64,000 nt of DNA, from contig CAWFCE010000002.1 in assembly GCA_963814275.1 (NCBI GenBank), positions 618,537 to 682,536 on the forward strand. Direction: 5' to 3'. The notes beneath the pieces were generated by a model. That model saw only the letters and a list, made by a program, of their open reading frames with translations, was not told the origin of the DNA and searched no databases. The position numbers were made by a program, and so were the translations under genes. Positions 10,164 to 29,498 of the stretch are shown here, piece after piece (within the stretch, counting starts at the first letter, position 1; every line of letters begins with the position of its first letter). This DNA is from Candidatus Parcubacteria bacterium (lineage in GTDB: Bacteria; Patescibacteriota; Patescibacteriia; Patescibacteriales; UBA12075).

Positions 10164-10410
10164 GATTTGAAATGGATAAAGTGCTGTTTATCAGCTTGGG
10201 CAATTCATGATTTATTAAATATCGGCCTTTATCCGCGGATTTGGCGAGGATTACTACCTGCCTACCGGCAGGTAAGCGCGGAAATTACGCGGAAATTACG
10301 ATTATATTCATGTTTAAATTTTCCATTGATTTATTTTTATATCAATATCTTCGTTTACGTTTTATACTGGCAAAGGCGGTCGTTGTTGAAAGCAATAATC
10401 CGCACGCTTT

Positions 10411-11052: not shown

Positions 11053-11209
11053 GAACCAGGGTTAGTTTTTTGATAATCTTATTATCATTTAATAATTTTG
11101 TCAGAATAATATATTGCGACCGCTGATTTAACGCGGATTACTGCGCGGAATTTACGATGAAATTATTCTTAAAATAAAAATTGTAAAATATAACTAAAAA
11201 TATCGCGAT

Positions 11210-11911: not shown

Positions 11912-11935
11912 CTTATTTATTGCTAATTTATCAAA

Positions 11936-12565: not shown

Positions 12566-12606
12566 CCGTTATAATAGACGAGTTTTATAATTATTTTTGA
12601 TATATT

Positions 12607-13188: not shown

Positions 13189-13193
13189 AATCC

Positions 13194-13700: not shown

Positions 13701-13705
13701 TAATT

Positions 13706-13747
13706 TTGACAATTTATCTTTAAAATACTCTAATTATATGGTATAAT
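13706..13747 (+). promoter_or_regulatory. candidate sigma70-type promoter(s) for the major pilin gene
   Basis: ttgaca (13706-13711), 17 nt spacer, then tctaat (13729-13734). Separately, an extended -10 tggtataat at 13739-13747. Confidence 0.35.
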
Positions 13748-13879
13748 GTGGATAAGTGTATATTACCTATTTCCGGATTTAATTTTGATTAAAGTGTAAT
13801 TTATTAATTTATCCTGCATTCATTGGCTTAATTTCTAGAATTAAGGTAATGAATGTAATCTCTAGGACGGAGGTGTTCT

Positions 13880-14365
13880 ATGAAACAAAATCAAAAAGGT
13901 TTTACCTTGATCGAATTATTGGTGGTAATCGCCATTATCGGCTTATTATCCACCTTGGCAGTCGTAGCTCTGAACAGCGCGAGGGCCAAATCACGTGATG
14001 CCCGCCGCATTTCCGACGTCAAACAGATGCAAACCGCGCTTGAGATGTATTTCAATGATGTCGGTCTTTATCCGAATGCCGGTGGTGCCGACCTTACCCC
14101 TGGAGCCGCAGGCAGTGTGGTAATATGCAATCCGGGCGGATATACGACAACTTGCGCTTCGACTGACACGACATTTATGGCGGTGGTGCCGGAAAATCCG
14201 ACACCGACCAATGACGGTCCGTGTCCAGCCGCCGGTTATTCGTATAATTCCCTTGACGGGTCAACATATCGGATAATGTATTGTGTCGGCGCGGATGCCG
14301 GATCCATTAAGGCCGGAACGAATATCGCTTGCGAAAACGGAATTACAGGGTGTTCGACTCCATAA
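13880..14365 (+). CDS. type IV pilin, probable major pilin
   Basis: Leader MKQNQKG|FTLIELLVVIAIIGLL. Strong SD (ggacggaggtg), its own upstream promoter candidates and a downstream terminator. Six Cys. C-terminus ...IACENGITGCSTP. Confidence 0.88.
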   Translation: MKQNQKGFTLIELLVVIAIIGLLSTLAVVALNSARAKSRDARRISDVKQMQTALEMYFNDVGLYPNAGGADLTPGAAGSVVICNPGGYTTTCASTDTTFMAVVPENPTPTNDGPCPAAGYSYNSLDGSTYRIMYCVGADAGSIKAGTNIACENGITGCSTP

Positions 14366-14389
14366 TTTTTTAAATTTACTGCACTACCA

Positions 14390-14420
14390 GACTCCCCGAC
14401 CAACGGGGAGTCTTTTGTTC
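14390..14420 (+). terminator. rho-independent terminator after major pilin gene
   Basis: gactccccg (14390-14398), loop accaa, cggggagtc (14404-14412), then ttttgttc. Confidence 0.75.
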
Positions 14421-14453
14421 GTCAAACTTTCGCGGATAGGTTATAATGTTTGT

Positions 14454-16637
14454 ATGGATAAAAAGCGTTTAGTATCAATAATAGACGGTTTGGCAATAAT
14501 ATCGATCGCCCTGGTATTTTTTCTGGTGCCGGTATACTTCAGCGCGTTTTATAAGGATTTTTCCGGATTTATAATCGGTAAAAGCGCCATTTTCCGGATT
14601 TTGGTCGAACTTCTGGCTGTGTTAACCGTGATTCGCGTTTTTTTCGCCGGCTGGCCGGTTTTTATGTTAAAAAAGTACGTTTACATTACCGTGATTTCGT
14701 TTTTTACGGCATTTGCCGTTTCCACGGTATTTTCACTCGATCATTCCTTAAGTTTCTGGGGAACTTATTGGCGCCAGGCCGGACTGTTTACCTATCTGCA
14801 TTTTGCCTTTTTTTTTCTGCTGATACCCGTTTATTTCGACAACCGGAAAAAAATAGAATGGCTTATCGATGTCATGATCGCCGCCGGCGTGATCGCCGCC
14901 GGTTACGGCATATATCAATGGCTCGGTTATGATTTCGTGAAGTGGCAAACCGCCCCGGTTTTCGGCGGCCGTCCCGGGTCGACCATCGGCCAGCCGTTAC
15001 TGTTGGCCAATTATTTGCTGCTGGTGGCCTGGTTTCCGGTTTATAAGGCTTTAAGCGGCAGTATCTGGCGGCGGTTGATCTATATTTTGGCATTTATAAT
15101 TATTTTGTTTGGATTGTTGCTGACCTTTTCCCGGGGGGCGATTTTGGGATATTTGGCCGGAGCTTGGCTAGGCCTCATCATGATCCTATATCTGAAGAGG
15201 CGTAAAAAAACGGTTTTGATGATATTTATATTGTCATTTTTTTTATTGGGAATAGGGTATTTTAGCCTTCATTATTTGTCGGATCGCCATTATAAGAATA
15301 TTTATGCAGAATATATTTCCCAAAGGATCATTAATGCCTTTGACCTGAGCACCGGTTCGATGGCCATGCGGCTTGAGTACTGGCGGGCGGCGTCCGATGC
15401 CCTCAAAGGGCGCTGGCTGATCGGATACGGCCCGGAAATGCAAAAAGATATCCTGGCCCGGTATTATAATCCGACTTGGGCGGAATTGGAGAGCGCGAGC
15501 GGGGTGCCTGACCGTTTTCATAATGAGTTTGTCGATACGACAGTAAGCGGGGGAGTGATACTTTTGGCAAGCTATCTGGCGGTTTTATTCATTTTTTTTG
15601 CCAGAGTATTACTTCATTTCCGCTCAGGAATAAACGGCAGGAAAGATTATTTGGTCATATTTTGGCTGGTCTCTTTTTGCGGTTATTTGGCTGCTTTGCT
15701 TTTTGGTTTTTCTACGATTGAAACCAATGTATATTTTTGGGGCGGCCTGGCTCTGGTTTTTGCCGCCATAAACGACAAAGAAAATACCGAAAACAAAAAA
15801 CCGGTTGTGGCCGGCAGTTATTTCCGCTATACTTATGGTATATTAGCCTTGTTTGTATTCGCTATAAGCGGATATTTTTTATTTCTCAATATACGCATTT
15901 GGCAGGCCGACTACCATTTCCGTTGGGGAAAGTTAAGTTTTATAAACAAAGATTATTCCGGGATGCTGGGCGAATACGGCCGGGCCTTGGAATTGAATCC
16001 AAACGAAAGTTTTTATAAATATTTTTTGATCGAAGATACCCTGGCATCGCTTGGCGGCGTTCAGTCAGAGGATTACCGACGGGAAGTATTGGCCTATATC
16101 GGCGGTTTGCCGGAAATATTGCCGCCAGACAGTGAAATCAGCCTGCCAGCCGGACGGGAAAGCCTGTATAGTTCCGCCCGTTATTATGCCGCGGTAGGCG
16201 CGTATCAGGACCGGAGCGCATTTCAAACTTCGGAGAAAATGTATAAAAAGCTCCTGGATTTTAATCGTTTTTACCCCAATACTTACCGTTCGATGGCGGA
16301 AATGTATCTTATGGCTGGGGAGTGGCAAAGGGCCGCTGATACGCTCAATGATCTGTTAGCGGTCTTGCCCGATCAGCATCTGCTTAATCCAGCGAGCAAC
16401 CATTATCGCGAAGTGGCGGAATACAAAAAAAACGTATATTTTAACCTGGGAATTGTTTACGAGCAACTCGGCGAACTCTACTCCGCCGCCGATGCTTACC
16501 GGAAAGTCATCGATTTTGATCCATTCGCCGTTTCAGTATATAAAAATATCGCAACCGTATATGAAAAGATCGGTTTACCGGACGAAGCGCTAAAGTACGA
16601 AAAGCGGTACAGGGACCTGACGGAAGTTAAGCGTTAA
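14454..16637 (+). CDS. O-antigen ligase/Wzy_C-like polytopic membrane protein with C-terminal TPR repeats (candidate O-oligosaccharyltransferase)
   Basis: Start moved to ATG 14454 because the track start 14283 overlaps the pilin and its terminator. More than 10 TM segments. Motifs FSRGAILGYLAG and FHNEFVDTTVSGGVILL. TPR-like C-terminus (YGRALELNPNE, AADAYRKVIDFDP). Confidence 0.78.
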   Translation: MDKKRLVSIIDGLAIISIALVFFLVPVYFSAFYKDFSGFIIGKSAIFRILVELLAVLTVIRVFFAGWPVFMLKKYVYITVISFFTAFAVSTVFSLDHSLSFWGTYWRQAGLFTYLHFAFFFLLIPVYFDNRKKIEWLIDVMIAAGVIAAGYGIYQWLGYDFVKWQTAPVFGGRPGSTIGQPLLLANYLLLVAWFPVYKALSGSIWRRLIYILAFIIILFGLLLTFSRGAILGYLAGAWLGLIMILYLKRRKKTVLMIFILSFFLLGIGYFSLHYLSDRHYKNIYAEYISQRIINAFDLSTGSMAMRLEYWRAASDALKGRWLIGYGPEMQKDILARYYNPTWAELESASGVPDRFHNEFVDTTVSGGVILLASYLAVLFIFFARVLLHFRSGINGRKDYLVIFWLVSFCGYLAALLFGFSTIETNVYFWGGLALVFAAINDKENTENKKPVVAGSYFRYTYGILALFVFAISGYFLFLNIRIWQADYHFRWGKLSFINKDYSGMLGEYGRALELNPNESFYKYFLIEDTLASLGGVQSEDYRREVLAYIGGLPEILPPDSEISLPAGRESLYSSARYYAAVGAYQDRSAFQTSEKMYKKLLDFNRFYPNTYRSMAEMYLMAGEWQRAADTLNDLLAVLPDQHLLNPASNHYREVAEYKKNVYFNLGIVYEQLGELYSAADAYRKVIDFDPFAVSVYKNIATVYEKIGLPDEALKYEKRYRDLTEVKR

Positions 16638-16645
16638 CGTTACGG

Positions 16646-17545
16646 TTATTTTTTAAAGGCGACTACCAATAAACTGTCATACAGACTAAAACAATACAAC
16701 AGGCCATGGATCAATTTTTTGGTTTGTGAATGGGGAAGATTATTGATGTAGCGAAAAGCGGTACGGCCAGCGGTAAACGGCATTGGCTCGAAGCCGTTTG
16801 CCCGCAAAGTCCGATTGAACGTTTTTCTCTTAAAATATGTGAGATGCGAGACTGGATCCCAATCCCGCCATTTTTCTTTCAAGTAACGGGCACGCAGACT
16901 GCCCAGATTGGGGACGGTCGCTACCAGTAGGCCGTTGGTTTTGAGCAGCTGGAAAATAGTTGCCAGGTCGTCTTTAAGATTCGAAGTATGTTCGAAATAT
17001 TCTATGGCGGTAACGACATTATAAGTTCCTGGTTTCCCGTTAAATTCCCGCAAGGATTTATTGTGTACCTTTATGCCTAAATTTTGTTCCGCCCATTCGC
17101 CGCTTTCTTTCGATATTTCCAGGCCTTCCGCTTGCCAACCCCTCTTGCCGGCCATCTCTACCAAATGGCCGAATGAACAGCCGATATCCAAAAAATTACC
17201 CTGGCTATCCGCATAACGTTCGACAATATCCAAAATTGATCTTAGCTGATGAATGTGGAAAGGCAAGCCATTCATATAATGGTCGAACTGAGTACTTTTT
17301 TCCGGTTCGGAAGAATTGCCTTTCTTCTTATAGTGGCTGGCCCGGTATAGATTTTCCATATCTCCGGGTTCGATCCTTTGCTTGACATAAACCAGCCCGC
17401 AATTATTGCATTGAACTATATCGAATTTTTTGTTATATAGCTCCGGTGAATCAAAAAAATCATTTCTATGGTTTATCAGGCGCATTATACGTGAATTGCC
17501 CTCGCCGCAACCGGGACAGGGATAGACATTTATTTTAAGTGACAT
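16646..17545 (-). CDS. class I SAM-dependent methyltransferase with N-terminal zinc ribbon
   Basis: CPGCGEG...CNNCGLVY, then FLDIGCSFGHL (motif I). The only minus-strand gene in the glycan block. Confidence 0.8.
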   Translation of the reverse strand: MSLKINVYPCPGCGEGNSRIMRLINHRNDFFDSPELYNKKFDIVQCNNCGLVYVKQRIEPGDMENLYRASHYKKKGNSSEPEKSTQFDHYMNGLPFHIHQLRSILDIVERYADSQGNFLDIGCSFGHLVEMAGKRGWQAEGLEISKESGEWAEQNLGIKVHNKSLREFNGKPGTYNVVTAIEYFEHTSNLKDDLATIFQLLKTNGLLVATVPNLGSLRARYLKEKWRDWDPVSHLTYFKRKTFNRTLRANGFEPMPFTAGRTAFRYINNLPHSQTKKLIHGLLYCFSLYDSLLVVAFKK

Positions 17546-17614
17546 GATGATAATTTGAAAGTTAGCTTATTAATTGGGTCGTTTTAATTATAACAGAGAA
17601 TAATAAGCCGAACA

Positions 17615-18790
17615 ATGGAAAATAAAAATAGCCATATTAAAAAAGGACATAAGATCGTATTTTTTGACCATACGCCTTTTGTCGGCGGAGCCCAACTGTC
17701 GCTGATGCAGCATTTGATAGAAATGAAGAGGCGTGGCGATGATTTTATTTTGGTTTGCGCCAATACTGCAAAAGACAGTAATTTGAGTTCACTGTATACA
17801 AAAAACAAGATTCCTTTTCGAACAATTGAAATACCGCGATTGAAAGTGTTGCGGCCCGCTGTTCTCATCCGTTTGCTGAAATCTGTATTTGTTCTCAGGA
17901 AACTTCTTAGAGAAGAAAATGCGGAATTACTCGTGACGAATACTGTCCGGACCGCGATATACGGCAGTCTGGCGGCGAAATTATGCGGTGTTAAAATAAT
18001 TTGGCTGATTCGCGACTTCACCTTCCCTTGCTGGCTTTTTTTCGGTTTTTCCGTATTCCCCAAGAAAATCGTTTTTAACGCGATGGCGGTCCGTAATTAT
18101 TATCGGCGGTATTTACCCGCGGAAAAAAAGGCAGCTGTCGTATATGTGGGGCGCGATCTTTACCGCCGCGTATCCGGAATCGATTCTAGCTCGGTCGAAA
18201 ATACCAGATCGAATTGGCGCGCTAACGGTAAATTGGTTGTCGGCTATGCCGGCCGTTTCGTTGCCTGGAAGGGGCCGCAGATTTTGATCAGGGCAATTGC
18301 TTATTTGGATAAGAGGGGAATAAAGGATGTAATTGCGGTAATGGCCGGGAGCGGCGCCGGTCAGGCTGAAAGCAACGAAACTGAATGCCGGACGCTGGCC
18401 AAAGAATTGGGGCTGGATGCCCGGATAATATTTACCGGGTTTATTTCCGATATGGCCACTTTCCTGCCGGCACTGGATGTCCTCGTATTGCCCTCTATCG
18501 AGCCGGAGCCTTTCTCATCGACGGTAGTCGACGCGATGATGGCCCGAGTGCCGGTGATCGGCACCGCTATCGGCGGAACACCGGAAGCGATTAGCGACAA
18601 GGAAACAGGGTTATTAGTGCCTCCGGGCGACCCCAAGGCGTTAGGCGATGCCATGCTATTAATGAAGAAAAATCATGAATTAAAAATGGCAATTATTGAG
18701 CAGGCTTACCGGCTGGCAATAAATAATTTTACCGTATCGAAAACTACCGCCGCGCTGGTAAAAATTTATCGAGAGGAAATAGTCAATTGA
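17615..18790 (+). CDS. glycosyltransferase family 4 (GT-B)
   Basis: C-terminal EPEPFSSTVVDAMMARVPVIGTAIGGTPEAI..ETGLLVPPGD signature. Confidence 0.9.
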   Translation: MENKNSHIKKGHKIVFFDHTPFVGGAQLSLMQHLIEMKRRGDDFILVCANTAKDSNLSSLYTKNKIPFRTIEIPRLKVLRPAVLIRLLKSVFVLRKLLREENAELLVTNTVRTAIYGSLAAKLCGVKIIWLIRDFTFPCWLFFGFSVFPKKIVFNAMAVRNYYRRYLPAEKKAAVVYVGRDLYRRVSGIDSSSVENTRSNWRANGKLVVGYAGRFVAWKGPQILIRAIAYLDKRGIKDVIAVMAGSGAGQAESNETECRTLAKELGLDARIIFTGFISDMATFLPALDVLVLPSIEPEPFSSTVVDAMMARVPVIGTAIGGTPEAISDKETGLLVPPGDPKALGDAMLLMKKNHELKMAIIEQAYRLAINNFTVSKTTAALVKIYREEIVN

Positions 18791-19608
18791 TATTTATGCC
18801 CGATCATTGCATAATATGCCATAGCAAACAGGCAAAAGCCGTTTTTATCGACCATGAAATACCGGTATTGCGCTGCAGCCATTGTTCGCATGTTTATTCA
18901 TCTTATAATGCAGAGCAGTATTATCAGGGATATTTTGGCGATACCAAATATAATGCTGATGTGTATTGGTGGCGGGATGCGCACCGCAAGATGTATCATG
19001 AATTCGGCAAAAGATATTTAAGCAGCCGGGGCGGCCGGCTGTTGGATGTCGGCTGCGGATTGGGTTTTTTCATCGATTATGTCTCCCGGATCCCGGGCTG
19101 GCAGACAACCGGATATGAGATATCCCCCGGAGCGGTAAGCTTTGCCAAAGAGACGCTTGGCCTGAAAACTGTATATTGCGGCAAGGTCGAAGATTCCAAA
19201 TTGCCGGATAATCATTTTGACATAATTACGCTCTGGGATGTTATCGAACATTTGCCGGATCCCGGTCCAATATTGAATTTTTCACGGAAAGCTTTGAAAA
19301 ACGGCGGATTTTTGTTCATTCACACGCCGAACATAAACATTCAATTACCGAAGGCCCGGATCAAATCTATATTATCCAAAAATAGAGGCGGACATTATCT
19401 GGAGGCGAAAGATCATATAAATATCTATTCCCCCGTAACTATTCGATTATTGCTTAAGCAATATGGATTCGAAAGAGTCGATCTCGTCCAGCTGCCGCCG
19501 ATACAAAGTGTTTCCGGTAATCGAAGCAGGATGCCGGTGTGGCTGAAAAATGTTTGGTTTTATTCGGCAAAAATCGTTTTTGTTTTAACCGGCATAAAAT
19601 TAATTTAA
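18787..19608 (+). CDS. class I SAM-dependent methyltransferase with N-terminal zinc ribbon
   Basis: CIICHS...CSHCSHVY, LLDVGCGLGFF, DIITLWDVIEHL. Confidence 0.85.
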   Translation: MIFMPDHCIICHSKQAKAVFIDHEIPVLRCSHCSHVYSSYNAEQYYQGYFGDTKYNADVYWWRDAHRKMYHEFGKRYLSSRGGRLLDVGCGLGFFIDYVSRIPGWQTTGYEISPGAVSFAKETLGLKTVYCGKVEDSKLPDNHFDIITLWDVIEHLPDPGPILNFSRKALKNGGFLFIHTPNINIQLPKARIKSILSKNRGGHYLEAKDHINIYSPVTIRLLLKQYGFERVDLVQLPPIQSVSGNRSRMPVWLKNVWFYSAKIVFVLTGIKLI

Positions 19609-19669
19609 ATAATTTGTTTGTAATAGCAAAAAAGTGATTAGACGGTTAAATTTGAAGAATATATAATTT

Positions 19670-21524
19670 ATGTGCGGCATAGTGGGACAGATAAATTTCA
19701 AAGGTGAAATGGTAAATAAAGATGAATTGGAAATAATGAGAGATACGATGATCCATCGGGGTCCAGACGATTCCGGAATGTATTGCCATGGTAATGTTGG
19801 ATTAGGTTTCCGTCGTTTGAGTATAATTGATCTAAGTGGCGCCGGTTCGCAGCCAATGTGCAATGAAAATGGTTCGATTTGGCTGGTATTTAACGGTGAA
19901 ATTTATAATTTTGACTCTTTAAGAAAAGACCTTTTGTCTAAGGGCCATAAATTCAAGTCTACTTCAGATAGCGAGGTATTAATACATTCATATGAAGAGC
20001 AAGGGATAAATTTTTTAAAAAAAATCAACGGCATGTTCGCCTTGGCGATATACGACCAGCGGGCCAACAGGCTGATTTTGGCGCGGGATCGCCTTGGCGT
20101 TAAACCCTTGTATTATTATCATGACGGTAAAAAATTAATTTTTGCCTCGGAATTAAAGGCAGTTTTGGGTTCCAAGAGTATCAATAAAGAGTTGAGTCAT
20201 GACGGCCTGGTTGATTACTTGCGCTTTGGTTATGTCTTGGAACCCGATTCGATATTCAAAGGAATAAAGAAAGTAAAACCTGCCGAATATTATATATGGG
20301 ATTGTAATACAGGCTCATTGGTAAAAAACGAGCTTTACTGGAAATTACTCTTCAAAAACAGAAGAAAATGGGGATGCTAAGGAAAATTTAGAAAAATTTT
20401 CAGCTTTATTGAAAGATTCGATAAAATCACGCTTGGTCAGTGACGTTCCGCTGGGAGTATTTTTAAGCGGCGGCCTCGACTCCAGCTCCATCGTTTCGAT
20501 CATGAGTCAGGCAGTGAAAAATAAAATCAAAACGTTTTCGATTGGATTTAAGGAAAAGGACTACAACGAAACGGTTTACAGCAGACAGGTTGCCCGCCAG
20601 TACAATACCGAGCATCATGAATTGATAATCGAGCCTGATGCAGTCAGTATATTACCAAAATTGGTGGAATATTTTGACGAACCTATTGACGACTCATCGG
20701 TAATTCCTACTTATTATTTGGCTAAATTTACCCGCCAGCACGTTACGGTCGCATTAAGCGGAGATGGAGCTGACGAACTTTTAGCGGGATACCGGAGATA
20801 TTTTTATTTTCAAAGGCAGGAAAGGATATTATCCAGTTTTCCGGAATATGTAAGCAATTTTTCCAGAATTTGCGCCAAGTTTTATCCGGAGCATTTAAGG
20901 GGCAAAAGATTATTGTATTTATCGAGCCTGGACCGATACGACAGATACGGTGAATTCATCAATGCCTTTACGTCTCCCGAGCTGGAACAACTGGTGGGGA
21001 GCGATTTGCTATCCAGCGGCAGCAATAAAGCATTTGTCGATTTCACCAGTCCGATGATAGAAGATATGATTACACAACTGCAGAATATCGATAGGCAGAC
21101 ATATTTACTGGGGGATATCATCGCTAAAATCGACCGAGTCTCAATGGCGAATTCACTGGAGGTGCGTTCGCCTTTTCTTGATTATCGATTATGGGAACTA
21201 GTTTTCAGTCTACCACCCCAGTACCGAGTCCATAATGGACAAGGGAAACATATGCTTAAGGAAGTTATGAAAAATGATTACAACCAAAACTTTTTAAACC
21301 GCAAGAAAATGGGTTTTAGTGTTCCGTTAAATTATTGGTTCAAAGGCAAATTAAAAGAATATGCCAAAAATATTCTATTTGATTCCAGCTTTATTGGGCG
21401 GGGATTTTTTAACGAACGATATGTCCGTAAATTATTTCAGGTGCATGAAAAAGGAAAAAGGGACTTTTCCAGAAAAATTTGGAATTTAATATTTTTAGAA
21501 CATTGGTTTAGAAAATGGTTATGA
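19670..21524 (+). pseudogene. asnB: asparagine synthase (glutamine-hydrolysing) AsnB-type amidotransferase, split by a frameshift near 20351-20360
   Basis: ORF 19670..20380 starts MCGIVGQ (Ntn glutaminase domain). ORF 20409..21524 carries SDVPLGVFLSGGLDSS (PP-loop synthetase domain). The second frame is already open from 20325. Removing one A from ttcaaaaaca joins the two as ...YWKLLFKTEENGDAKENLEKFSALLKDSIKSRL. Confidence 0.75.
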
Positions 21525-22618
21525 AAAGAGAATTAAATATTAAAGTCGAAAAGATATTGTTTATTCTGCCCACATTAAATACCGGCGGTGTTGAAAGATT
21601 TACCGTAAATTTGGCCAAGTCTTTAACTAAGATGGGCATTTCGACGGTAATTATCATAATAAAATCCAGTACGGATAAGAACTTGGAAATCGATTTGGGC
21701 TCAGCAGGTATAAAATTGATTAGCTTGGATAAAAAATTAAAAATATCGCTTAATTGCTTGATCCGTTTGGTCAAAATAATAAAACAAATTAAGCCGGATG
21801 TTATCCATACCCAATTGTTTATTGCCGATATTTACGGCGTATTGGCGGCAATTTTAGCGCGAAATTTCAATTTAGTAACAACCGAACAATATGACTATAA
21901 AGTACCTGTAATTGGCCGTGTCGTTAAAAGGGTGCTAAATACTTATTTCAAATATTTCATCGTAAAATCCGCAGCTTTAAAAAAATTTTTGCAGGAAAAA
22001 TATCATATAGAGGGAAGCAAAATAGTACAAATACCAAACGCTGTCGATACGGAAAAATTTTATATTTCCGACCGTAATTATAATTCGGACAAAATAACCG
22101 TAGGCGCCATCGGCCGTTTGTCTCCGGAAAAAGGCTTTGATATATTGCTAGAGGCAATGGCCGTTCTGCCGGGTCATATAGAATGCTTGATCGCGGGAGA
22201 CGGTTTGTTATTTGACGATTTGAGCGGAATAATCAAATCATTCGGTTTGGTGAACAGAGTTAAATTAATCGGTAACATCGCGGATGTACCGGCGTTTTAT
22301 AGTCGGATCGATATTTTGGCTATTCCGTCGCGCTGGGAAAGCTTTGGTTTAGTGGTCTTGGAAGGGGGAGCAGCCGGATTGCCGGTGGTTTGCGCAGATA
22401 TTCCCGCGCTTCGCGAGCTGATTGTGCCGGAAGTGAATGGTTTATGTTTTAAAATAGGAGACGCAGATTCATTAGCTGAAAGAATTTCGACACTGATCAG
22501 GGAACCCGAAATAAGAAAAAATCTTGGACAAGCATTACGGAATTTAATTGTTAGTAAATATCATTTTGATAAAGTTGCAGGGTTATACTTGGATTTATAT
22601 TCTGATATAATTAATTGA
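21515..22618 (+). CDS. glycosyltransferase family 4 (GT-B)
   Basis: ILFILPTLNTGGVERF N-terminus. PSRWESFGLVVLEGGAAGLPVVCADIPALRELI. Confidence 0.88.
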   Translation: MVMKRELNIKVEKILFILPTLNTGGVERFTVNLAKSLTKMGISTVIIIIKSSTDKNLEIDLGSAGIKLISLDKKLKISLNCLIRLVKIIKQIKPDVIHTQLFIADIYGVLAAILARNFNLVTTEQYDYKVPVIGRVVKRVLNTYFKYFIVKSAALKKFLQEKYHIEGSKIVQIPNAVDTEKFYISDRNYNSDKITVGAIGRLSPEKGFDILLEAMAVLPGHIECLIAGDGLLFDDLSGIIKSFGLVNRVKLIGNIADVPAFYSRIDILAIPSRWESFGLVVLEGGAAGLPVVCADIPALRELIVPEVNGLCFKIGDADSLAERISTLIREPEIRKNLGQALRNLIVSKYHFDKVAGLYLDLYSDIIN

Positions 22619-22627
22619 TCAAAATAA

Positions 22628-23533
22628 ATGGATTTTCGTATATTCAATAAAATATTAAATAGAATAAATTTCTTTTTTGATAATATCGGAAAAATGGATT
22701 GGGACGCGGTCTGGTGCTCGCTGCAGCCGGCCGATAAACGGTCTTTGGTTTGCCTGCCGGAATTGCTGGATAAAAGGAAAATAATCAAATGGGATCCTAA
22801 AAATAAAACCGTGTCCTGCGGAAATAAGTTTTTTTGTTACAACGAAAATGAGACTTTGACCGATTTGGTTTCGATAATTATGTCCGGGCATCCTTACATA
22901 AGGAAAAACTTTTTAGACAATGAAATGTATGCTTTCGACGGCGCTTATGAGTCCGGAAAAGTTATGCTCGAAAAAGACGATGTCGTAATCGATGTTGGCG
23001 CGCACGTCGGATTATTTTCCGTGATGGCCGGGGAAAAAGTCGGTCCGGGCGGTAAAATATATTCATTCGAGCCGGTGAAGGAGAGCAGGGATCTTTTGTT
23101 AAAGAATTTAACGGCAAATAAGATCGGAAATGCCATTGTGGCCCCATATGCCTTGGGGGCGGATAATGAAAATCTAAATATAAAAATGGATTACCAAAAT
23201 CGGGGACAAAGTACCGGCGTCATGGCGGGAGATACAGAATTTGTCAGAAATGTTCCTCAAATAAAGCTGGACAGTTTTGTCCGAGACAATAGTCTTAAGA
23301 GAGTGGATTTTATCAAAGCCGATATCGAGGGTATGGAACGGGACCTTATAAGCGGGGCAAGCGAGACCATCAGGCGATTCAAACCGAAATTATCTGTCTG
23401 CATCTACCATTTGCCGGATGATCCGAAGGTGATATATTCTTTGATCCGGCAATTGGTTCCGGAATACGAAATTACTATGACAAAAACAAAACTCTACGCC
23501 TCGGTGCCGGCAAATATTATGAATAAATGTTAA
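22628..23533 (+). CDS. FkbM family methyltransferase
   Basis: VIDVGAHVGLFS..GKIYSFEP..FIKADIEGME pattern. Confidence 0.78.
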   Translation: MDFRIFNKILNRINFFFDNIGKMDWDAVWCSLQPADKRSLVCLPELLDKRKIIKWDPKNKTVSCGNKFFCYNENETLTDLVSIIMSGHPYIRKNFLDNEMYAFDGAYESGKVMLEKDDVVIDVGAHVGLFSVMAGEKVGPGGKIYSFEPVKESRDLLLKNLTANKIGNAIVAPYALGADNENLNIKMDYQNRGQSTGVMAGDTEFVRNVPQIKLDSFVRDNSLKRVDFIKADIEGMERDLISGASETIRRFKPKLSVCIYHLPDDPKVIYSLIRQLVPEYEITMTKTKLYASVPANIMNKC

Positions 23534-23540
23534 TTTTCGA

Positions 23541-25424
23541 ATGACTAAAATTCTATACATTGTCGTCGTCTTGATTATTCTGGTATTGCCCTTTTTCCAG
23601 GGAGGAAATACCGATTATACGATACCGCTTATGGAAGCCGTATCGGGCATCGTGTTGTTAAGCGGTTTGGTTGCTTGGAAACATAGAGGCCGGGTAAATC
23701 CGCCTTTTGTTGTATTGGGGATTTGGCTGGCGGTATTGTTTTTGCTGCTGCCTTTTTCCTCCTCACCGTTTAACAGTTTATTAATATGCGTATATTGGGC
23801 TTCATTGGCAATATTCTTTGCTATATTTTTTCGATTGCCTTTCGACAAGAATCAATTGCAAGGCCCGGCGATCTTATTTAGCGCTGTTGGGACGGTTTTG
23901 TCCCTAATCGGTTTTTATTTTTATCTTAGCGGTGATTATACCCGATTGACCTCCACCTTTTATTGGCCTAATCCTTTTGCCGGATATCTGCTTTTTGTGA
24001 TTCCCGTTCAAGCATATCTATTGTCCTTAGGCAGATACCGCCTGGTCAATAGCGCCGCGATTGTTTTGACTCTGGCGGCTTTCGTATTAACAGGTTCGCG
24101 CGGGGCATATATAAGCATAGTGCTCGCAGCCCTGGCCGCCTGGCTAGTTTACCGTCCGACGATTAGACCTTATCGCCGGTATATACTCTACATAACTTTA
24201 GCGACACTCTGTCTGATATTGTTTTTTTCCATTTTAAAACCTAACGCTTATTTTTTGATGAAGCGTTATGATTCCGGCGAAGCGGGGCAGAAGATCGACA
24301 GCGGCGCAGCCACCCGTGTGGCTTATTGGCGGGGGGCCTGGAAAATATTTACGGATAATCCGTTTACCGGTACGGGCTTGGGCACTTTCGGATCGGTTTA
24401 TCCGCGATATCAGACCAACCCGACCACATACGGAAAGTATCCCCACAATTGGTATCTGGGATTATTATCGGAAACCGGGATCATATCATTCTCGCTTTTT
24501 GCCGCATTTTTTATTTTAATTGCCATTATTGCGATAAAAAACAGGAACAATCGGAATGCGCTTACGATTTGCCTGGGTTGGGCCGTCTTGGCCTCGCTTC
24601 TTCACAGCGGCGTAGATATCGACTGGCATTATCCGGCCAACGCTCTTACGTTTTGGATATTATTGGGATTATATTATAATGGAATCAAGGCTGAAAGTAA
24701 TTTATTGCCAATAAGGAAAAAATCAATCATTTTTGGCTTGAATTTTTTGCGAATATTGCTGGGTGTTTTTTTCTTTATTTTTGGCGCGTCTGTAATATAT
24801 TCCACATATTATTCCAAGCAGGCAAAACAAGCGCTTATGGATGGACAAGCGACTGAAGCCAAAGTTTTCCTGGCCAGGGCAATGGCGATTTTGCCTGATC
24901 CGAATTTCCACTATTATTATTCTCTGGCCGCGCAGGAGGAGAGCAGGAGTTTAACCGGTAATTCCCGGCAAGTCGCCCTGGCGCGGGCGCAAACGGAGAT
25001 CGAACAGGCTCTTGCCTCTTCGCCCGGGGTTCCATATTATCATGAACAATTCGGGGTTATAAGCGAGTCCATCGGAAAGGGTAATGCCGCCGAATTACAA
25101 TACCGCCAGGCAATCGCGCTTGATCCCGTAAATACGCCACGTTATTATTACCGCTTGGCATCTTTACTGTATCGGCAAAATCGATTGGATGAAGCGATAT
25201 CGGTAGGAAACTCGATATTGGCCAAGTACCCTTATGATGTGGTTCTAAACCGGCAGATTATCATCACTCCGCTGCAGCCGAGCGCGAGCGGCATCGAAAA
25301 GGATGTCAGGTCCCTCTATCTCCTGATGTCCGATATTGAAACCGCCCGGGGCGATGAGGGGGCGGCCAAAGAATATCGTATTCAAGCTGAACAAGTACCG
25401 GTTAAGAATTTATTCGATTATTAA
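23541..25424 (+). CDS. second O-antigen ligase/Wzy_C-like polytopic membrane protein with C-terminal TPR repeats
   Basis: LTGSRGAYISIVLAAL and YPHNWYLGLLSETGIISF motifs. TPR-like C-terminus (YRQAIALDPVNTPRYYYRLA). Confidence 0.78.
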   Translation: MTKILYIVVVLIILVLPFFQGGNTDYTIPLMEAVSGIVLLSGLVAWKHRGRVNPPFVVLGIWLAVLFLLLPFSSSPFNSLLICVYWASLAIFFAIFFRLPFDKNQLQGPAILFSAVGTVLSLIGFYFYLSGDYTRLTSTFYWPNPFAGYLLFVIPVQAYLLSLGRYRLVNSAAIVLTLAAFVLTGSRGAYISIVLAALAAWLVYRPTIRPYRRYILYITLATLCLILFFSILKPNAYFLMKRYDSGEAGQKIDSGAATRVAYWRGAWKIFTDNPFTGTGLGTFGSVYPRYQTNPTTYGKYPHNWYLGLLSETGIISFSLFAAFFILIAIIAIKNRNNRNALTICLGWAVLASLLHSGVDIDWHYPANALTFWILLGLYYNGIKAESNLLPIRKKSIIFGLNFLRILLGVFFFIFGASVIYSTYYSKQAKQALMDGQATEAKVFLARAMAILPDPNFHYYYSLAAQEESRSLTGNSRQVALARAQTEIEQALASSPGVPYYHEQFGVISESIGKGNAAELQYRQAIALDPVNTPRYYYRLASLLYRQNRLDEAISVGNSILAKYPYDVVLNRQIIITPLQPSASGIEKDVRSLYLLMSDIETARGDEGAAKEYRIQAEQVPVKNLFDY

Positions 25425-25434
25425 ATGTTATTTT

Positions 25435-26139
25435 ATGAAATTGAGCGTAATCATACCCGTTTTTAATGAAGAGAATACTATCGAAGCGCTGATCACAGCC
25501 GTGGAAAACGCGAATTTGCCGGATGGTTTGGGCAAGGAATTGATTATTGTCGACGATGGTTCGTCTGATCGTACATCCGAAATAACCGCAAAATATTCAA
25601 GCAGGCACGAAGTTATCCGGCTTCCGAGAAATCAAGGCAAGGGCGCGGCCGTACGCGCCGGCCTGGCCCGCGCCAGCGGCGATTTTTTTATCATTCAAGA
25701 CGCCGACCTTGAGTACGACCCCAGGGAATACGTGAAATTGCTCCAGCCGATTTTGGCTGACCGAGCCGATATTGTTTTCGGTTCTCGTTTTATTTCGAGC
25801 GAACCGCATCGGATATTATACTTCTGGCATTCGCTCGGCAACCGGTTTTTGACCTTATTTTCAAATATGCTTACCAATCTGAATCTTACCGATATGGAAT
25901 CCTGCTACAAGCTGATGACGCGCGAAGCGGGCAAATATTTAGCGGCAAATTTGCAGTCGCAGCGCTTCGGCATTGAGCCGGAAATAGTCGCCCGGGTAAG
26001 TCGGAAAAATTGGCGGATATATGAAGTGGGCATTTCATATCACGGCCGTACCTACGAAGAAGGAAAGAAAATAAATTGGCGCGACGGCCTGGCGGCATTC
26101 TGGCATATAATTCGTTTCAATCTTTTCGATAAATCGTAA
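25435..26139 (+). CDS. glycosyltransferase family 2 (polyprenol-phosphate sugar transferase-like)
   Basis: Start moved to ATG 25435: MKLSVIIPVFNEE. Also IVDDGSSDRT, IIQDADLEYDP and GSRF. Confidence 0.88.
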   Translation: MKLSVIIPVFNEENTIEALITAVENANLPDGLGKELIIVDDGSSDRTSEITAKYSSRHEVIRLPRNQGKGAAVRAGLARASGDFFIIQDADLEYDPREYVKLLQPILADRADIVFGSRFISSEPHRILYFWHSLGNRFLTLFSNMLTNLNLTDMESCYKLMTREAGKYLAANLQSQRFGIEPEIVARVSRKNWRIYEVGISYHGRTYEEGKKINWRDGLAAFWHIIRFNLFDKS

Positions 26140-26208
26140 AATAATGGTTGTAAATAAAAAAGCCACCCGCGGATCGGGATATTTGGAGAATTTTTTTCCC
26201 GGAAACGA

Positions 26209-26760
26209 TTGCTACTAGCCGATCGATTGATTGACGAGAATTTGCGGCGCGGGAAAATTCTCGACATCGGTTGTGGCACTTATCCGGTGTTTCTGGATTC
26301 GGTACGATTTCGCCATAAATACGCGCTGGACAAATTGCCGCCGCCGGTGACAATGAACGCGATCGATTATCGCAGTTTTCATATCGACGGCCGGCACTCC
26401 CTGCCTTACGATGATGGTTTTTTCCAGACAGTAACCTTATTGGCGGTGCTGGAACACATGAACGTTAAAGTTGCCCGTTATCTACTGAATGAAATTTACC
26501 GCATATTAGCGCCCTCAGGTGCCGTGATCGTCACGGTTCCGCATCGGCGGGGAGACGGATTGCTCCGTTTACTGGCAAAACTGAACCTGGTATCAAGCGA
26601 AGAAATCAATGAACATGTCCAGCAATATAGCCCGAATTATCTCCGATACCAATTGACCTATGCCGGATTTGCCGAATCGGATATTACGATCGGCATATTT
26701 GAGGCCGGTTTCAATATATTTGCCCGGGTGATAAAATCAAGTAAATATCAAATAAAATGA
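26209..26760 (+). CDS. class I SAM-dependent methyltransferase (5' end probably displaced by a frameshift in a T7 run)
   Basis: ILDIGCGTYP, LLAVLEHM, APSGAVIVTVP. The track start is TTG. An ATG at 26144 opens MVVNKKATRGSGYLENFF in the -1 related frame and would join at t26191-t26197. Confidence 0.72.
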   Translation: MLLADRLIDENLRRGKILDIGCGTYPVFLDSVRFRHKYALDKLPPPVTMNAIDYRSFHIDGRHSLPYDDGFFQTVTLLAVLEHMNVKVARYLLNEIYRILAPSGAVIVTVPHRRGDGLLRLLAKLNLVSSEEINEHVQQYSPNYLRYQLTYAGFAESDITIGIFEAGFNIFARVIKSSKYQIK

Positions 26761-27389
26761 ACCTGGATTCATCCTTTTTCGAAACATTTCAATCGATAAA
26801 TTTTATTCTTCCACCCATGGTTAAGGGCTGGTCCCTGGTGATGATCGTCGGTGTTACGGCTGCGGTATTTTTGATAATTACTGCCTTATTCATGCCCCGT
26901 TTTAAATCGGGGTATTATTTGTTGATAATCGGCTGGCTGCCGCTTTTTCTTATATTTTTTTCCGGCAATATTTTAAATAGCCGTGAAGATTACGGATATT
27001 TGTCTATGCCATTGGCCGATCGCAGCGGCGAACGGGTCTGCCGCTTCGAGTCGCGGGTAACGGATAGCCGGGAATGGTGCGGAATGTTCGATTTTTTCGG
27101 ACAAATAAAAAGCGACATTCCGAACGGCGCAAAAGTAGCCGCGGAGGTTTCTCCCATTATTAAGCCTTATTTTATGTATTACTTGCTTTCGGAATACAAT
27201 TTTGTCGATCAAATCGAAAATTCCGAATATGTTATTTTTTATAACCCTTCAAGGCAATATATGCTGGATGGCGACGATCTTTTCCGGGTGGAAAACGGCA
27301 TACGGACTTCGCTTGGGAAATACGGGGTAGTGAGGGCCGATCAGCCGGGACGGATGATAATTAAACGAATGGATTATGGCAATATTTAG
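26757..27389 (+). CDS. membrane protein of unknown function
   Basis: ORF with two N-terminal TM segments. Its ends overlap both neighbouring genes, consistent with translational coupling. Confidence 0.5.
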   Translation: MNLDSSFFETFQSINFILPPMVKGWSLVMIVGVTAAVFLIITALFMPRFKSGYYLLIIGWLPLFLIFFSGNILNSREDYGYLSMPLADRSGERVCRFESRVTDSREWCGMFDFFGQIKSDIPNGAKVAAEVSPIIKPYFMYYLLSEYNFVDQIENSEYVIFYNPSRQYMLDGDDLFRVENGIRTSLGKYGVVRADQPGRMIIKRMDYGNI

Positions 27390-28773
27390 CGTAGTTTTAT
27401 TTATCATTGCCGTTATTATTCCCGGTGTTATGCTGGCTGATTTTTTTATTCTTGGCCGGCGGGATAATTTTTGGCTGCGTTTGTTCCTTGGTTACGGGCT
27501 GGGCTGTTTTCTGATTGTACTCGATATGTTCATATGGATCTTCTGGCTAAAGCTGGCATTCCGGCCGGCTTTGTTTTGGTCATTGTGGGCAATCGAAACT
27601 GTCGGATTATATTTCATCATAACCCGGATCCGCCGCCGGCGACCGGCCGATATATTCGGTTTTAATATAACTTTTCGATTAAAAACGGTCGAATGGTTAT
27701 TATTATTCCTGATAATCCTGCAGGTGGTATTTTCATTCGGCCATGCCATTGCCCGTCCGGCTGCCGCCTATGACAGTATCGCGGATTGGTCATACCGGGC
27801 CAAGGTGCTATATTATGACCAGGAGGGCATTTTCGACAAGAACAAGCCTCTTGTATATTTGGGCGGCGGCAGCCGCAATTATCCCTGGCTGGTGCCATTG
27901 CTGGCTTACTGGCTGGCGGCGCAGGGTGGGGGCTATAATGACACGGTTGCCAATATTATTTTTGTAAGTTATTTCGTTTCACTGCTTGGATTTTTTTATT
28001 TTGCCGGCCGTCAATTCGCCCTACGCCCGCTTGCCTTGTTAATGACACTTTTTTTGTCCTCAATGCCGCTTATTTTTTACCATTCATTTAATGCATACGC
28101 CGACCTGGCGTTTGCCTATTACATAATGATTATGTTTTATTGGCTGTACCGGTCGCTGCCAGAAAACAATAAGAAAAATTTGATTTTTGCCGGAATTATT
28201 TTGGGTATAGCCGCATATGTTAAAAATGATTTTTTGCTATTGTACGTTTTGACATTTATTTTTTTGTTTTTTGCGGCAATCTCCAGACCGGTAAAAAATT
28301 CACGGTTGATGTCGGCGCTTAAAAGTGAATTCGTTTTTTCTCTGCCGGTTATTGCCGTGGCATTTCCCTGGCTTTTTTTCAATTTCGTAAACCGTTTGGG
28401 ATTCCGCACCACTCCATTCGCCTTAGGCTGGCACCCGGAAGCGATGTCGAGCATTGTTCGTACCCTGTTTTTGAACAATAACTGGAATATCTGGTGGTAT
28501 CTGGTAATTGCGGTTTCTATTGTCGGCTGGCGGAAAATAATTAAAGATGACAGGCTTCGGCTGATGTGGATATATCTGCTGGCCTATCTGGCCTTGCTTA
28601 CCGGTTTATACTTGTTTACGGAAGATTACCGCTATGCCGTCGATTATACGGCTATCGGCCGCACCTTCTTGCCACTGTTACCAATAAGCGCCATAGTCGC
28701 TTTATTAATAATTAATAAAATTAACTTTTTCGGCGAGTCCTTCCGCAAGAAAAGCGTCGACTATAATTTATGA
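27376..28773 (+). CDS. polytopic membrane protein, GT-C-like (ArnT/PMT-type) glycosyltransferase candidate
   Basis: More than 10 TM segments. A loop after the early TMs (AAAYDSIADWSYRAKVLYYD) resembles GT-C first-loop acidic motifs. Context only, no firm motif match. Confidence 0.45.
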   Translation: MAIFSVVLFIIAVIIPGVMLADFFILGRRDNFWLRLFLGYGLGCFLIVLDMFIWIFWLKLAFRPALFWSLWAIETVGLYFIITRIRRRRPADIFGFNITFRLKTVEWLLLFLIILQVVFSFGHAIARPAAAYDSIADWSYRAKVLYYDQEGIFDKNKPLVYLGGGSRNYPWLVPLLAYWLAAQGGGYNDTVANIIFVSYFVSLLGFFYFAGRQFALRPLALLMTLFLSSMPLIFYHSFNAYADLAFAYYIMIMFYWLYRSLPENNKKNLIFAGIILGIAAYVKNDFLLLYVLTFIFLFFAAISRPVKNSRLMSALKSEFVFSLPVIAVAFPWLFFNFVNRLGFRTTPFALGWHPEAMSSIVRTLFLNNNWNIWWYLVIAVSIVGWRKIIKDDRLRLMWIYLLAYLALLTGLYLFTEDYRYAVDYTAIGRTFLPLLPISAIVALLIINKINFFGESFRKKSVDYNL

Positions 28774-29498
28774 GCGATTTGTCGGAAATCCTATACAAGG
28801 AATTAAAAGAATTTTCCTTAACGAACGAAAAGGAATATATCCGCTTTCATATCAAGCGTTTTTCGGCAATTATCGGGTATTTAGCGAAAGAATTTCCCGG
28901 CCGCGATTGCCGCATATTGGATATCGGTTCATATGGCGGACATCTGTTGATCGGTTTGCGCCAAAAAGGCTACAAGAATTTATGCGGCGCCGACATGCCG
29001 GAAATTAACCGGATTATCCGAAAAAGATTGGAAAAATACGGTTTTGGGCATTACGATATCGATCTACGGAGTTTGCCTTCGGACATACCGGGCAGGTCAT
29101 TTGACCTAATCGTTTTTAGCGAAACCTTGGAACACCTGGACTTCCATCCTTTATACGTATTCAAAGAATTCAGCCGGTTACTGAAACCAGGCGGAAAAAT
29201 TTTGATTACCACCCCGAACCTAACCCGATTGAATAATTGCCTGAAATTATTAGGCGGCCGCAGTATCCATCAGGACTTAGCGCTGCCTTATACCAGCGGC
29301 ACCCATTACCGTGAATATACGGCCGCTGAAGTGGCATATCTTTTGGAACGAACCGGTTTGTCCATCTCCCGAACTAAGTATATCGATTTCCATTACCCCG
29401 ATGAAAATGCGCTGTTGGCGGCGCTGAACAGTGTCGCCGGCAAAATAAGAAAAAGTTGGCTGCCAAATTATATTATTACCGGGGAAAAGATCGGTTGA
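28770..29498 (+). CDS. class I SAM-dependent methyltransferase
   Basis: ILDIGSYGGHL, DLIVFSETLEHL, LKPGGKILITTPN. Confidence 0.8.
   Translation: MSDLSEILYKELKEFSLTNEKEYIRFHIKRFSAIIGYLAKEFPGRDCRILDIGSYGGHLLIGLRQKGYKNLCGADMPEINRIIRKRLEKYGFGHYDIDLRSLPSDIPGRSFDLIVFSETLEHLDFHPLYVFKEFSRLLKPGGKILITTPNLTRLNNCLKLLGGRSIHQDLALPYTSGTHYREYTAAEVAYLLERTGLSISRTKYIDFHYPDENALLAALNSVAGKIRKSWLPNYIITGEKIG

Follow-up and report, generated by a model that had tools for sequence, protein, structure and literature searches.

The question raised by this locus is whether the protein encoded directly downstream of a major type IV pilin gene glycosylates that pilin. The locus lies in a 64,000-nucleotide stretch (64 kb, hereafter the window) of contig CAWFCE010000002.1 from Candidatus Parcubacteria bacterium, an ultrasmall member of the candidate phyla radiation (CPR, Patescibacteria), in which scans with Pfam and NCBIfam models identified a type IV pilus operon on the plus strand. 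An earlier note on this DNA, made from its letters and open reading frames (ORFs), had described a pilin gene, a terminator, a membrane protein that joins Wzy_C and TPR domains, a block of glycan genes containing a second such protein, and the prepilin peptidase gene pilD, and had read the whole as a self-contained system for pilin O-glycosylation. We found these elements in that order and at those positions, with ~13 kb of glycan genes between the first Wzy_C/TPR protein (WZYC1) and PilD. From its gene position, domains and conserved residues, WZYC1 is probably a pilin-dedicated O-oligosaccharyltransferase (O-OTase), TfpO-like in position and WsfB-like in architecture, that anchors a hypervariable glycan island. 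The features on which this reading turns are the following.

13697-13747, plus strand: promoter-like sites of the major pilin, TTGATA-18-TAAAAT and TTTAAA-17-TATAAT (with TG), called by consensus match only (10/12 matches)
13880-14365, plus strand: major type IV pilin (prepilin, 161 amino acids (aa)), the presumed glycan acceptor; N_methyl E 3e-10
14389-14420, plus strand: intrinsic terminator after the pilin gene, a hairpin of 10 pairs (7 GC) with a T-run
14419-14447, plus strand: promoter-like site for WZYC1, with a TATAAT box at 14442-14447 that ends 6 nt before the ATG, a leaderless-type spacing
14454-16637, plus strand: WZYC1, Wzy_C-family membrane enzyme, 727 aa, with 13 predicted transmembrane (TM) helices and a C-terminal TPR domain predicted to be extracytoplasmic
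29582-30448, plus strand: prepilin peptidase PilD, which closes the island; A24_N_bact E 6.9e-32, Peptidase_A24 E 1.6e-10

The pilin, which has the sequences MKQNQKGFTLIELL and GFTLIELL, is separated from WZYC1 by 88 nt from stop to start. WZYC1 matches Wzy_C at aa 212-375 with 71.2 bits (E 1e-19; Pfam PF04932 cut-off 31.7) and TPR_1, TPR_2 and TPR_12 at aa 590-720, and it contains the motifs FSRGAILGYL and FHNEFVDTTVSGG. An upstream GTG at 14283 was rejected as its start codon: a gene beginning there would overlap both the pilin gene and the terminator, and the alignment of the orthologues starts at the ATG at 14454. An AlphaFold2 (AF2) model of WZYC1 built on 10 homologues (pLDDT 79.8, pTM 0.78) has 13 long helices, with a helical loop spanning 277-357 and, at 501-726, a repeat domain that is helical throughout. 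A WaaL-type fold, taken here as some 12 TM helices and a large helical loop outside the membrane between TM9 and TM10, is seen in this model of WZYC1. Foldseek aligned the membrane part of the model with WaaL (7tpg_B) at E 7e-6 and TMt 0.61 over 457 columns, and the C-terminal part matched TPR proteins. A single TM-domain sequence gave no match in a search of the PDB; WaaL was reached by profile only, a profile of the WZYC1 TM domain finding WaaL and no other structure (E 2e-11).

The alignment with WaaL places R227, R306 and H356 of WZYC1 on R191, R265 and H313 of 7tpg_B, and these three residues together with 16 other positions are invariant in an alignment of 10 sequences that share 20-33% identity. 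We take the three WaaL residues to be those needed for its catalysis, as reportedly described in a 2022 paper on the WaaL structure. Counted from a cytoplasmic N-terminus, the short loops rich in Lys and Arg (128-132, 198-206, 248-252, 389-398 and 444-454) fall on the inside. Because there are 13 helices and the charges follow this positive-inside pattern, the TPR domain is predicted to lie outside the membrane, on the same side as the catalytic loop; the globular domain of the pilin is also outside while the pilin is in the membrane, so that an outward TPR domain would be well placed to hold it.

The same architecture could serve a different end, with WZYC1 as a non-catalytic factor for pilus assembly or stability in which the TPR domain is a scaffold and a degenerate Wzy_C domain its membrane anchor. 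TPR proteins serve pilus biogenesis in other bacteria, WZYC1 has weak TIGR02521 PilW matches (on the TPR part only), and its gene lies within the core assembly operon. A degenerate anchor is hard to reconcile with the invariance of the WaaL-aligned Arg/Arg/His set and 16 further positions at such low overall identity, and glycan genes accumulate directly downstream of WZYC1 in most loci, making this explanation very improbable.

Linkage of WZYC1 to the major pilin

Recurrence of the pilin-Wzy_C adjacency in relatives had been set as a test beforehand. The survey base was about 10 loci (scans with a 5-sequence alignment gave 3 loci from genomes and 4 from metagenomes), and the neighbourhoods of WZYC1 relatives were annotated against the window proteins. 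A WZYC1 relative lies directly 3' of an orthologue of the major pilin in 9/9 independent loci with upstream DNA, namely L001/L013, L004, L007, L009, L010, L012, L014, L016 and L017. The sequence of a tenth locus, L018, begins at the WZYC1 gene start, its pilin side not being covered, and the island of this locus ends in PilD. The adjacency is far beyond chance, since it is present in every recovered member of the clade with upstream DNA. Those relatives that carry a name are listed as 'Patescibacteria group bacterium' or 'Candidatus Parcubacteria bacterium'. Between the window and its relatives PilC is 54-61% identical (73% in L012), and orthologues of the pilin in 10 other loci are 44-59% identical to it. 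Because PilB is 53-57% identical (75% in L012) and WZYC1 only 25-33%, the linkage has outlasted deep divergence. The pilin-WZYC1 pair stays while its neighbours change: a PilT gene is present or absent, and the second pilin and the genes for unknown proteins shift position.

The promoter candidates and terminator that had been proposed for the pilin gene were recovered (see the list above), and the terminator has counterparts elsewhere. In all ten orthologous pilin-to-Wzy_C spacers, a strong GC hairpin and U-run after the pilin gene is followed by a TATAAT-like box. In the window and in most of the other loci (L001, L007, L009, L010, L012 and L014) only 6-7 nt separate the end of this box from the WZYC1 start codon; no Shine-Dalgarno sequence is found between this box and the start. 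This arrangement suggests that transcription terminates or is attenuated after the abundant pilin transcript and that WZYC1 is transcribed separately, in a leaderless-type manner.

Wzy_C/TPR proteins are numerous, and the specificity of the linkage was assessed against other members of the family. A phmmer search with the WZYC1 TM domain against 1.84 billion representatives gave 7322 matches at E<=1e-3, 3019 at E<=1e-10 and 183 at E<=1e-30, the last mostly 720-790 aa long. Four more distant CPR paralogues (P0008, P0009, P0011 and P0015; 20-26% identity) have as their contexts a tRNA synthetase gene, genes for a sigma factor with Wzy_C and GT4 proteins, radical-SAM (S-adenosylmethionine) and GT2 genes, and genes for MreB and penicillin-binding proteins; none of the four adjoins a pilin. 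In a rough neighbour-joining tree of TM domains the pilin-adjacent proteins form one clade and the second Wzy_C/TPR protein of the island (WZYC2) falls in another, with the non-adjacent paralogues outside both. Because the distant paralogues are not pilin-adjacent and the tree separates them, pilin linkage is a property of one clade and not of the Wzy_C/TPR architecture. Acinetobacter offers a parallel, with a general PglL beside a pilin-specific TfpO.

These data bear on the possibility that WZYC1 is a ligase or polymerase for an acceptor other than pilin (an S-layer protein, a lipid anchor or the cell wall), the island making a general surface glycan and residing in the pilus operon through co-regulation or co-inheritance. 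Wzy_C/TPR proteins are common in CPR genomes in contexts unrelated to pili, the search of representatives gave thousands of matches at E<=1e-3, and WsfB, a known enzyme with Wzy_C and TPR domains, acts on an S-layer protein. The promoter-like site after the terminator also means that WZYC1 is not strictly co-transcribed with the pilin, and the orthologous pilins share no conserved acceptor Ser/Thr. A general role would not readily explain why this clade alone, and not the other paralogues, keeps its place beside the pilin in every informative locus while the surroundings change, nor why in the operons of L001 and L010 WZYC1 is the sole non-pilus gene, lying between the pilin and PilD. We consider an acceptor other than pilin unlikely.

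Glycan genes between WZYC1 and PilD

The genes of the island are as follows.

16646-17545, minus strand: SAM methyltransferase with N-terminal Zn ribbon (CPGC...CNNC); Methyltransf_23 E 9.5e-24; the sole minus-strand gene of the island
17615-18790, plus strand: GT4 glycosyltransferase; Glycos_transf_1 E 3.8e-34
18787-19608, plus strand: SAM methyltransferase with N-terminal Zn ribbon (CIIC...CSHC); Methyltransf_23 E 2.3e-24; L004 orthologue E 2e-89
19670-21524, plus strand: AsnB-type glutamine amidotransferase, frameshifted; GATase_7 E 8.5e-48 (19670-20380), Asn_synthase E 1.5e-97 (20409-21524)
21515-22618, plus strand: GT4 glycosyltransferase; Glycos_transf_1 E 2.1e-37, Glyco_transf_4 E 1.8e-22
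22628-23533, plus strand: FkbM-family methyltransferase; Methyltransf_21 E 6.7e-21, TIGR01444 E 1.5e-26
23541-25424, plus strand: WZYC2, second Wzy_C and TPR membrane protein, 627 aa; Wzy_C E 5e-24, 85.2 bits (cut-off 31.7), TPR
25435-26139, plus strand: GT2 of the polyprenyl-phosphate sugar synthase type (DPM1/ArnC/GtrB-like); Glycos_transf_2 E 8.9e-35
26209-26760, plus strand: SAM methyltransferase; Methyltransf_23 E 7.8e-12
26757-27389, plus strand: 210-aa protein with 2 TM helices, directly upstream of the PMT_2-like protein
27376-28773, plus strand: polytopic PMT_2-like protein, candidate GT-C, 9-11 TM helices; PMT_2 27.4 bits (cut-off 26.1)
28770-29498, plus strand: SAM methyltransferase, recurrent in related islands; Methyltransf_23 E 2.2e-19; orthologues in L004 (2e-45) and L007 (6e-44)

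Most of the gene assignments in the earlier note agree with this list. Both Wzy_C-family proteins with TPR domains have Pfam matches above the cut-off, and the two GT4 proteins, the GT2, the FkbM methyltransferase and the two methyltransferases with Zn ribbons were all matched. Five of the six SAM methyltransferases it had counted are detectable (four of the Methyltransf_23 type and the FkbM protein); a sixth was not found, and the 210-aa ORF at 26757-27389 has no Pfam, NCBIfam or PHROG match. The AsnB-type amidotransferase has both of its domains in a gene that is split by a frameshift of one base near an A5 run at about 20345-20352, the second part starting at about 20325/20409. The gene may be a true pseudogene, or the assembly may be in error at the homopolymer; L007 carries an intact 616-aa orthologue. 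The amidation step may thus be dead in this genome, which makes the amidated glycan that had been proposed doubtful, and the description of the glycan as heavily methylated has only the five methyltransferase genes behind it.

The view of the system as self-contained did not hold. Among the scanned ORFs of the window there was no phosphoglycosyltransferase gene for initiation, no Wzx or ABC flippase gene and none for making nucleotide sugars (Bac_transf, Glycos_transf_4, Polysacc_synt, ABC exporter), and two of the relatives have no island at all: in L001/L013 and L010 no gene lies between WZYC1 and PilD. Both have the pilin, the Wzy_C/TPR protein and PilD, and the transferase must be capable of working with a donor that is made elsewhere. 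The window and L001 share the downstream gene order (DNA ligase, GatC, GatA), and relative to L001 the 13-kb glycan block of the window forms an insertion between WZYC1 and PilD. The GC content falls to 0.35-0.41 over the AsnB, GT4 and FkbM genes (19000-23000) against about 0.45-0.50 in the flanks, which gives mild support to a mosaic acquisition of part of the island.

Where an island is present, its cargo differs from locus to locus. L004 carries methyltransferases, a radical-SAM protein, WZYC2 and the PMT_2-like protein together with its 210-aa partner; L007 carries FkbM, AsnB, GT2, methyltransferase and GT4 genes; L009 has GT4, DegT aminotransferases and an oxidoreductase; L017 has a WZYC2-GT2 fusion, a rhamnosyltransferase-like GT2, a fusion of GT2 to a 10-TM domain and, as in L004, the PMT_2-like protein and its 210-aa partner; and L018 has WZYC2 and GT2. 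Downstream of PilD, and without relation to the glycan genes, L018 also encodes a Peptidase_S74 protein and a cluster of four radical-SAM proteins with HxsD (6371-14338).

WZYC2 contains the motifs GSRGAYISI and PHNWYLGLLSETG and the same Arg/Arg/His motifs as WZYC1. The similarity between the two proteins is weak, they belong to separate clades, and members of the WZYC2 clade occur in the islands of L004, L017 and L018. WZYC2 is probably a polymerase or a second ligase. In L017 a GT2 is fused to the N-terminus of a WZYC2-clade Wzy_C/TPR protein (P0028, 10001-12478). A use of polyprenyl-phosphate monosaccharide donors by WZYC2 was considered from this fusion and rejected, as the fused GT2 is EpsD/rhamnosyltransferase-like and not DPM1-like. 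The fusion says only that WZYC2 works with cytoplasmic chain building, which fits a polymerase or a second ligase without deciding between them.

Missing from the earlier note was a probable second pathway in the island, made up of the DPM1/ArnC/GtrB-like GT2 and the PMT_2-like protein with its 2-TM partner. The best NCBIfam matches of the GT2 are AglJ, PgfS, PpgS and ArnC, all below their equivalog cut-offs, and its best PDB matches are DPMS 5mlz (1.8e-21), followed by ArnC and GtrB. Its start is probably the ATG at 25435 (the ORF is open from 25336), hence there is no overlap with the WZYC2 gene. The PMT_2-like protein, which the earlier note had called GT-C-like, passes the PMT_2 cut-off narrowly and its fold is unconfirmed: a profile search of the PDB gave no match, and a single-sequence AF2 model (pLDDT 49.6) was too poor for a fold search. 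It has orthologues in L004 (1.8e-92) and L017 (1.1e-65), and the pair formed with the 210-aa protein travels together in three loci (the window, L004 and L017). From these matches and this gene order we read the GT2, the PMT_2-like protein and the 2-TM partner as a second, outer-face route of the undecaprenyl-phosphate (Und-P) sugar plus membrane glycosyltransferase kind, beside the Wzy_C route.

The GT2 of the window has no TM helix, and its orthologue in L017 (13572-16010) joins the DPM1-like GT2 and a 10-TM domain without Pfam match in one protein. The same 10-TM domain is found in L007 (19447-22081) as a separate 598-aa protein downstream of a non-orthologous GT2 (TuaG/WcaE/EpsE-like). It may represent an undescribed family of membrane glycosyltransferases paired with a polyprenyl-phosphate sugar synthase.

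The pilin might instead be glycosylated directly by the PMT_2-like GT-C protein and its 2-TM partner, using a polyprenyl-phosphate sugar from the DPM1-like GT2, as in TfpW or actinobacterial protein O-mannosylation, with the Wzy_C/TPR proteins polymerising or extending the glycan. The closeness of the GT2 to DPMS, ArnC and GtrB, the retention of the PMT_2-like protein with its 210-aa partner in L004 and L017, the fusion of the L017 GT2 to a membrane domain and the precedent of TfpW, a GT-C pilin glycosyltransferase encoded 3' of pilA, all point in this direction. However, the module is absent from most pilin-WZYC1 loci (L001, L007 in its covered part, L009, L010 and L018), the PMT_2 match is marginal and the fold unconfirmed, and the module could act in addition to WZYC1 and not instead of it. 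Direct glycosylation by this route is therefore quite improbable in our estimation.

Possible acceptor, proposed mechanism and other genes of the pilus operon

Pilin glycosylation, as proposed by the earlier note, thus survives in part: an O-OTase for pilin is the best reading of WZYC1, given the adjacency and the Arg/Arg/His residues, although the system is not self-contained. Several observations weigh against this reading. The Wzy_C family also includes lipid-A-core ligases and polymerases, which are not separable from O-OTases by sequence alone. The Pfam markers of PglL-type oligosaccharyltransferases, PglL_A (PF15864) and Wzy_C_2 (PF11846), are found in neither WZYC1 nor WZYC2 at E<=0.01; the WZYC1 orthologue of L018 has a sub-threshold PglL_A match (E 0.0099, 16 bits against a cut-off of 25). 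Because the loci share ancestry, fewer cases of adjacency are truly independent than the count suggests. Neither the window nor the related islands examined yielded an initiating phosphoglycosyltransferase or a flippase. Among the 11 orthologous pilins compared no Ser/Thr is conserved across all, and 6/11 do not have the C-terminal Cys-loop with its [S/T] tail.

That tail, C..GIxGC[S/T]xx, ends 5/11 orthologous pilins, including the pilin of the window, whose C-terminus is ...ACENGITGCSTP with GITGCSTP as the terminal residues. By analogy with known pilin-specific enzymes, the C-terminal Ser/Thr is only a lead as the site of the glycan. Genes for DsbA-like (40338-41159) and DsbD_2-like (53737-54456) thiol-disulfide proteins also lie in the window and are possibly relevant to a disulfide-bonded C-terminal loop of the pilin.

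The analysis shows the gene content, the conserved pilin-WZYC1 linkage, the fold, the conserved residues and a predicted topology; for WZYC1 acting as a pilin O-OTase, we infer the acceptor, the donor, the site and all of the chemistry as follows. The glycan would be assembled on undecaprenyl-pyrophosphate at the cytoplasmic face, where an initiating transferase encoded elsewhere would begin the chain, the two GT4 proteins would build it, and the methyltransferases would tailor it, together with the AsnB-type amidotransferase if its frameshift is an assembly error. A flippase, also encoded elsewhere, would flip the glycan. The outward TPR domain of WZYC1 would hold the membrane-anchored prepilin or pilin, and the enzyme would pass the glycan to a Ser/Thr of the pilin globular domain through its WaaL-type active site (R227, R306, H356) before PilD-processed subunits enter the fibre. 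On the outer face the GT2, the PMT_2-like protein and the 2-TM partner would probably add sugars. These accessory modules (WZYC2 on the one hand and the GT2/PMT_2-like/2-TM set on the other) are part of the hypervariable cargo between the transferase and PilD.

The remaining genes of the operon that lie upstream of the major pilin are as follows.

3407-4450, plus strand: PilM, upstream part of the pilus operon
6503-8245, plus strand: PilB, upstream part of the pilus operon
8288-8671, plus strand: response regulator, upstream part of the pilus operon
8967-10163, plus strand: PilC, upstream part of the pilus operon
10411-13188, plus strand: four proteins without family matches, upstream part of the pilus operon
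13194-13700, plus strand: second pilin

In relatives a PilT-like second ATPase is encoded between the response regulator and PilC (L001 6504-7472, L007 6553-7587); the corresponding interval of the window (8672-8966) holds no PilT-like gene. Three of the four proteins between PilC and the pilins are paralogues of 210-233 aa (10411-11052, 11210-11911 and 11936-12565, followed by 12607-13188). They share an N-terminal TM helix or signal, the motif DWNNLPNDF...GD..G.L.M....I.N and a C-terminal W..WCG/AIG; they have no Pfam match, and the short motif gives weak PHROG tail-fibre matches (E 3e-4 to 4e-3). Orthologues occur in the same pilus operons of L009, L012, L014 and L016, and the three may be pilus-associated adhesins. 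Downstream of PilD are an 878-aa secreted protein and then three minor pilins. The 878-aa protein (30421-33057) is rich in Cys, Gly and Ser, with one N-terminal TM helix and no family match, and shorter homologues (about 450-530 aa) occupy the same position in L001/L013, L010 and L017; it might be an adhesin or a protein of the pilus tip. Farther along the window, a fluoride riboswitch (RF01734, 41.8 bits) at 57769-57840 lies directly upstream of an ORF at 57850-58272.

Comparison with known glycosylation systems

Type IV pili are central to the attachment of CPR bacteria to host cells and to their life on them. If WZYC1 acts as proposed, a transferase locked to the major pilin would be a concrete candidate for the pilin-glycosylation enzyme, and the variable cargo between WZYC1 and PilD would explain strain-level surface diversity (host recognition, phage evasion, protease resistance). 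Should WZYC1 have another role, the locus would still be useful in marking how glycan islands enter a conserved operon.

Four O-OTase classes have been described, PglL, PglS, TfpO and TfpM; the genes of the last two adjoin those of their pilins, on which the enzymes act at a C-terminal Ser/Thr (PMC9829042). WZYC1 was compared with these four by gene position, domains and published descriptions. TfpO (PilO; P. aeruginosa 1244, Acinetobacter) and TfpM (Moraxellaceae) are, like WZYC1, polytopic Wzy_C-family enzymes adjoining the cognate pilin gene, a likeness from which a single pilin would be the expected acceptor, and their C-terminal Ser/Thr sites are resembled by the Cys-loop and Ser/Thr ends of several pilins in our set (PMC9829042). 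WZYC1 differs in being about 270 aa longer, in its 13th TM helix and extracytoplasmic TPR domain, and in belonging to Patescibacteria and not to Proteobacteria. TfpO borrows O-antigen units, whereas WZYC1 has a variable glycan island of its own downstream and, in the same pilus operon, a second Wzy_C paralogue.

In architecture WZYC1 is like WsfB from Paenibacillus alvei, an O-OTase with Wzy_C and a C-terminal TPR domain (PMC2943079), which also shares with WZYC1 a Gram-positive-type envelope. Its cluster holds an AsnB homologue (wsfA), glycosyltransferases and methyltransferase activity (PMC2943079). The WsfB gene is linked to a cluster for the S-layer, and the S-layer protein is what the enzyme modifies. 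WZYC1 is locked to a pilin gene within a pilus operon, and none of the window proteins scanned was recognised as belonging to an S-layer.

Position and TPR domain together are matched by TfpW of P. aeruginosa group IV, a polytopic membrane enzyme encoded directly 3' of pilA, without which the pilin is not glycosylated and whose large TPR domain is C-terminal and periplasmic (bioRxiv 10.1101/2020.04.19.049825). Unlike WZYC1, with its WaaL/Wzy_C fold, TfpW is a GT-C arabinofuranosyltransferase (ArnT-like, DDx motif) that uses a polyprenyl-phosphate sugar; the match of WZYC1 was to WaaL and not to ArnT or PMT. WaaL of Cupriavidus metallidurans (PDB 7TPG) is the only solved structure matched, with the same membrane fold and the aligned Arg/Arg/His. 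WaaL attaches O-antigen to lipid A-core; it has 12 TM helices but lacks a TPR domain, and its gene context differs from that of WZYC1. CPR bacteria are not known to make lipopolysaccharide. PglL and PglS (general and ComP-specific, respectively; Neisseria, Acinetobacter) belong to the Wzy_C-family O-OTases and modify Ser residues of pilins. The PglL gene is not linked to pilE, and the enzyme acts on many targets (PMC9829042), whereas WZYC1 is pilin-linked and has neither PglL_A nor Wzy_C_2.

Set against these classes, the pilin-linked Wzy_C/TPR clade might constitute a fifth, unrecognised class of bacterial O-OTases, specific to Patescibacteria and recognising pilin through its TPR domain. The slot between WZYC1 and PilD would then act as a 'pilus serotype' locus, hypervariable in the way of an O-antigen locus. 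It would diversify the sugar coat of the pilus with which these episymbionts contact hosts and take up DNA, and would thereby shape host range and phage resistance. We offer this larger proposal tentatively, and hold it somewhat short of an even chance. TPR-fused O-OTases from a new phylum could, if the proposed activity is real, extend the bioconjugation toolbox, which now comprises PglL, PglS, TfpO and TfpM (PMC9829042). The one relevant paper found for Patescibacteria, an experimental study, predicts pilin O-glycosylation in Saccharibacteria and names no enzyme (PMC11623550), and within the library searched no paper on O-antigen ligases of CPR bacteria was found. The locus probably holds a pilin-glycosylation system of a general kind already known, though not described from CPR bacteria; new are a clade of TPR-fused, pilin-locked Wzy_C proteins in this phylum and a hypervariable glycan slot inside the pilus operon.

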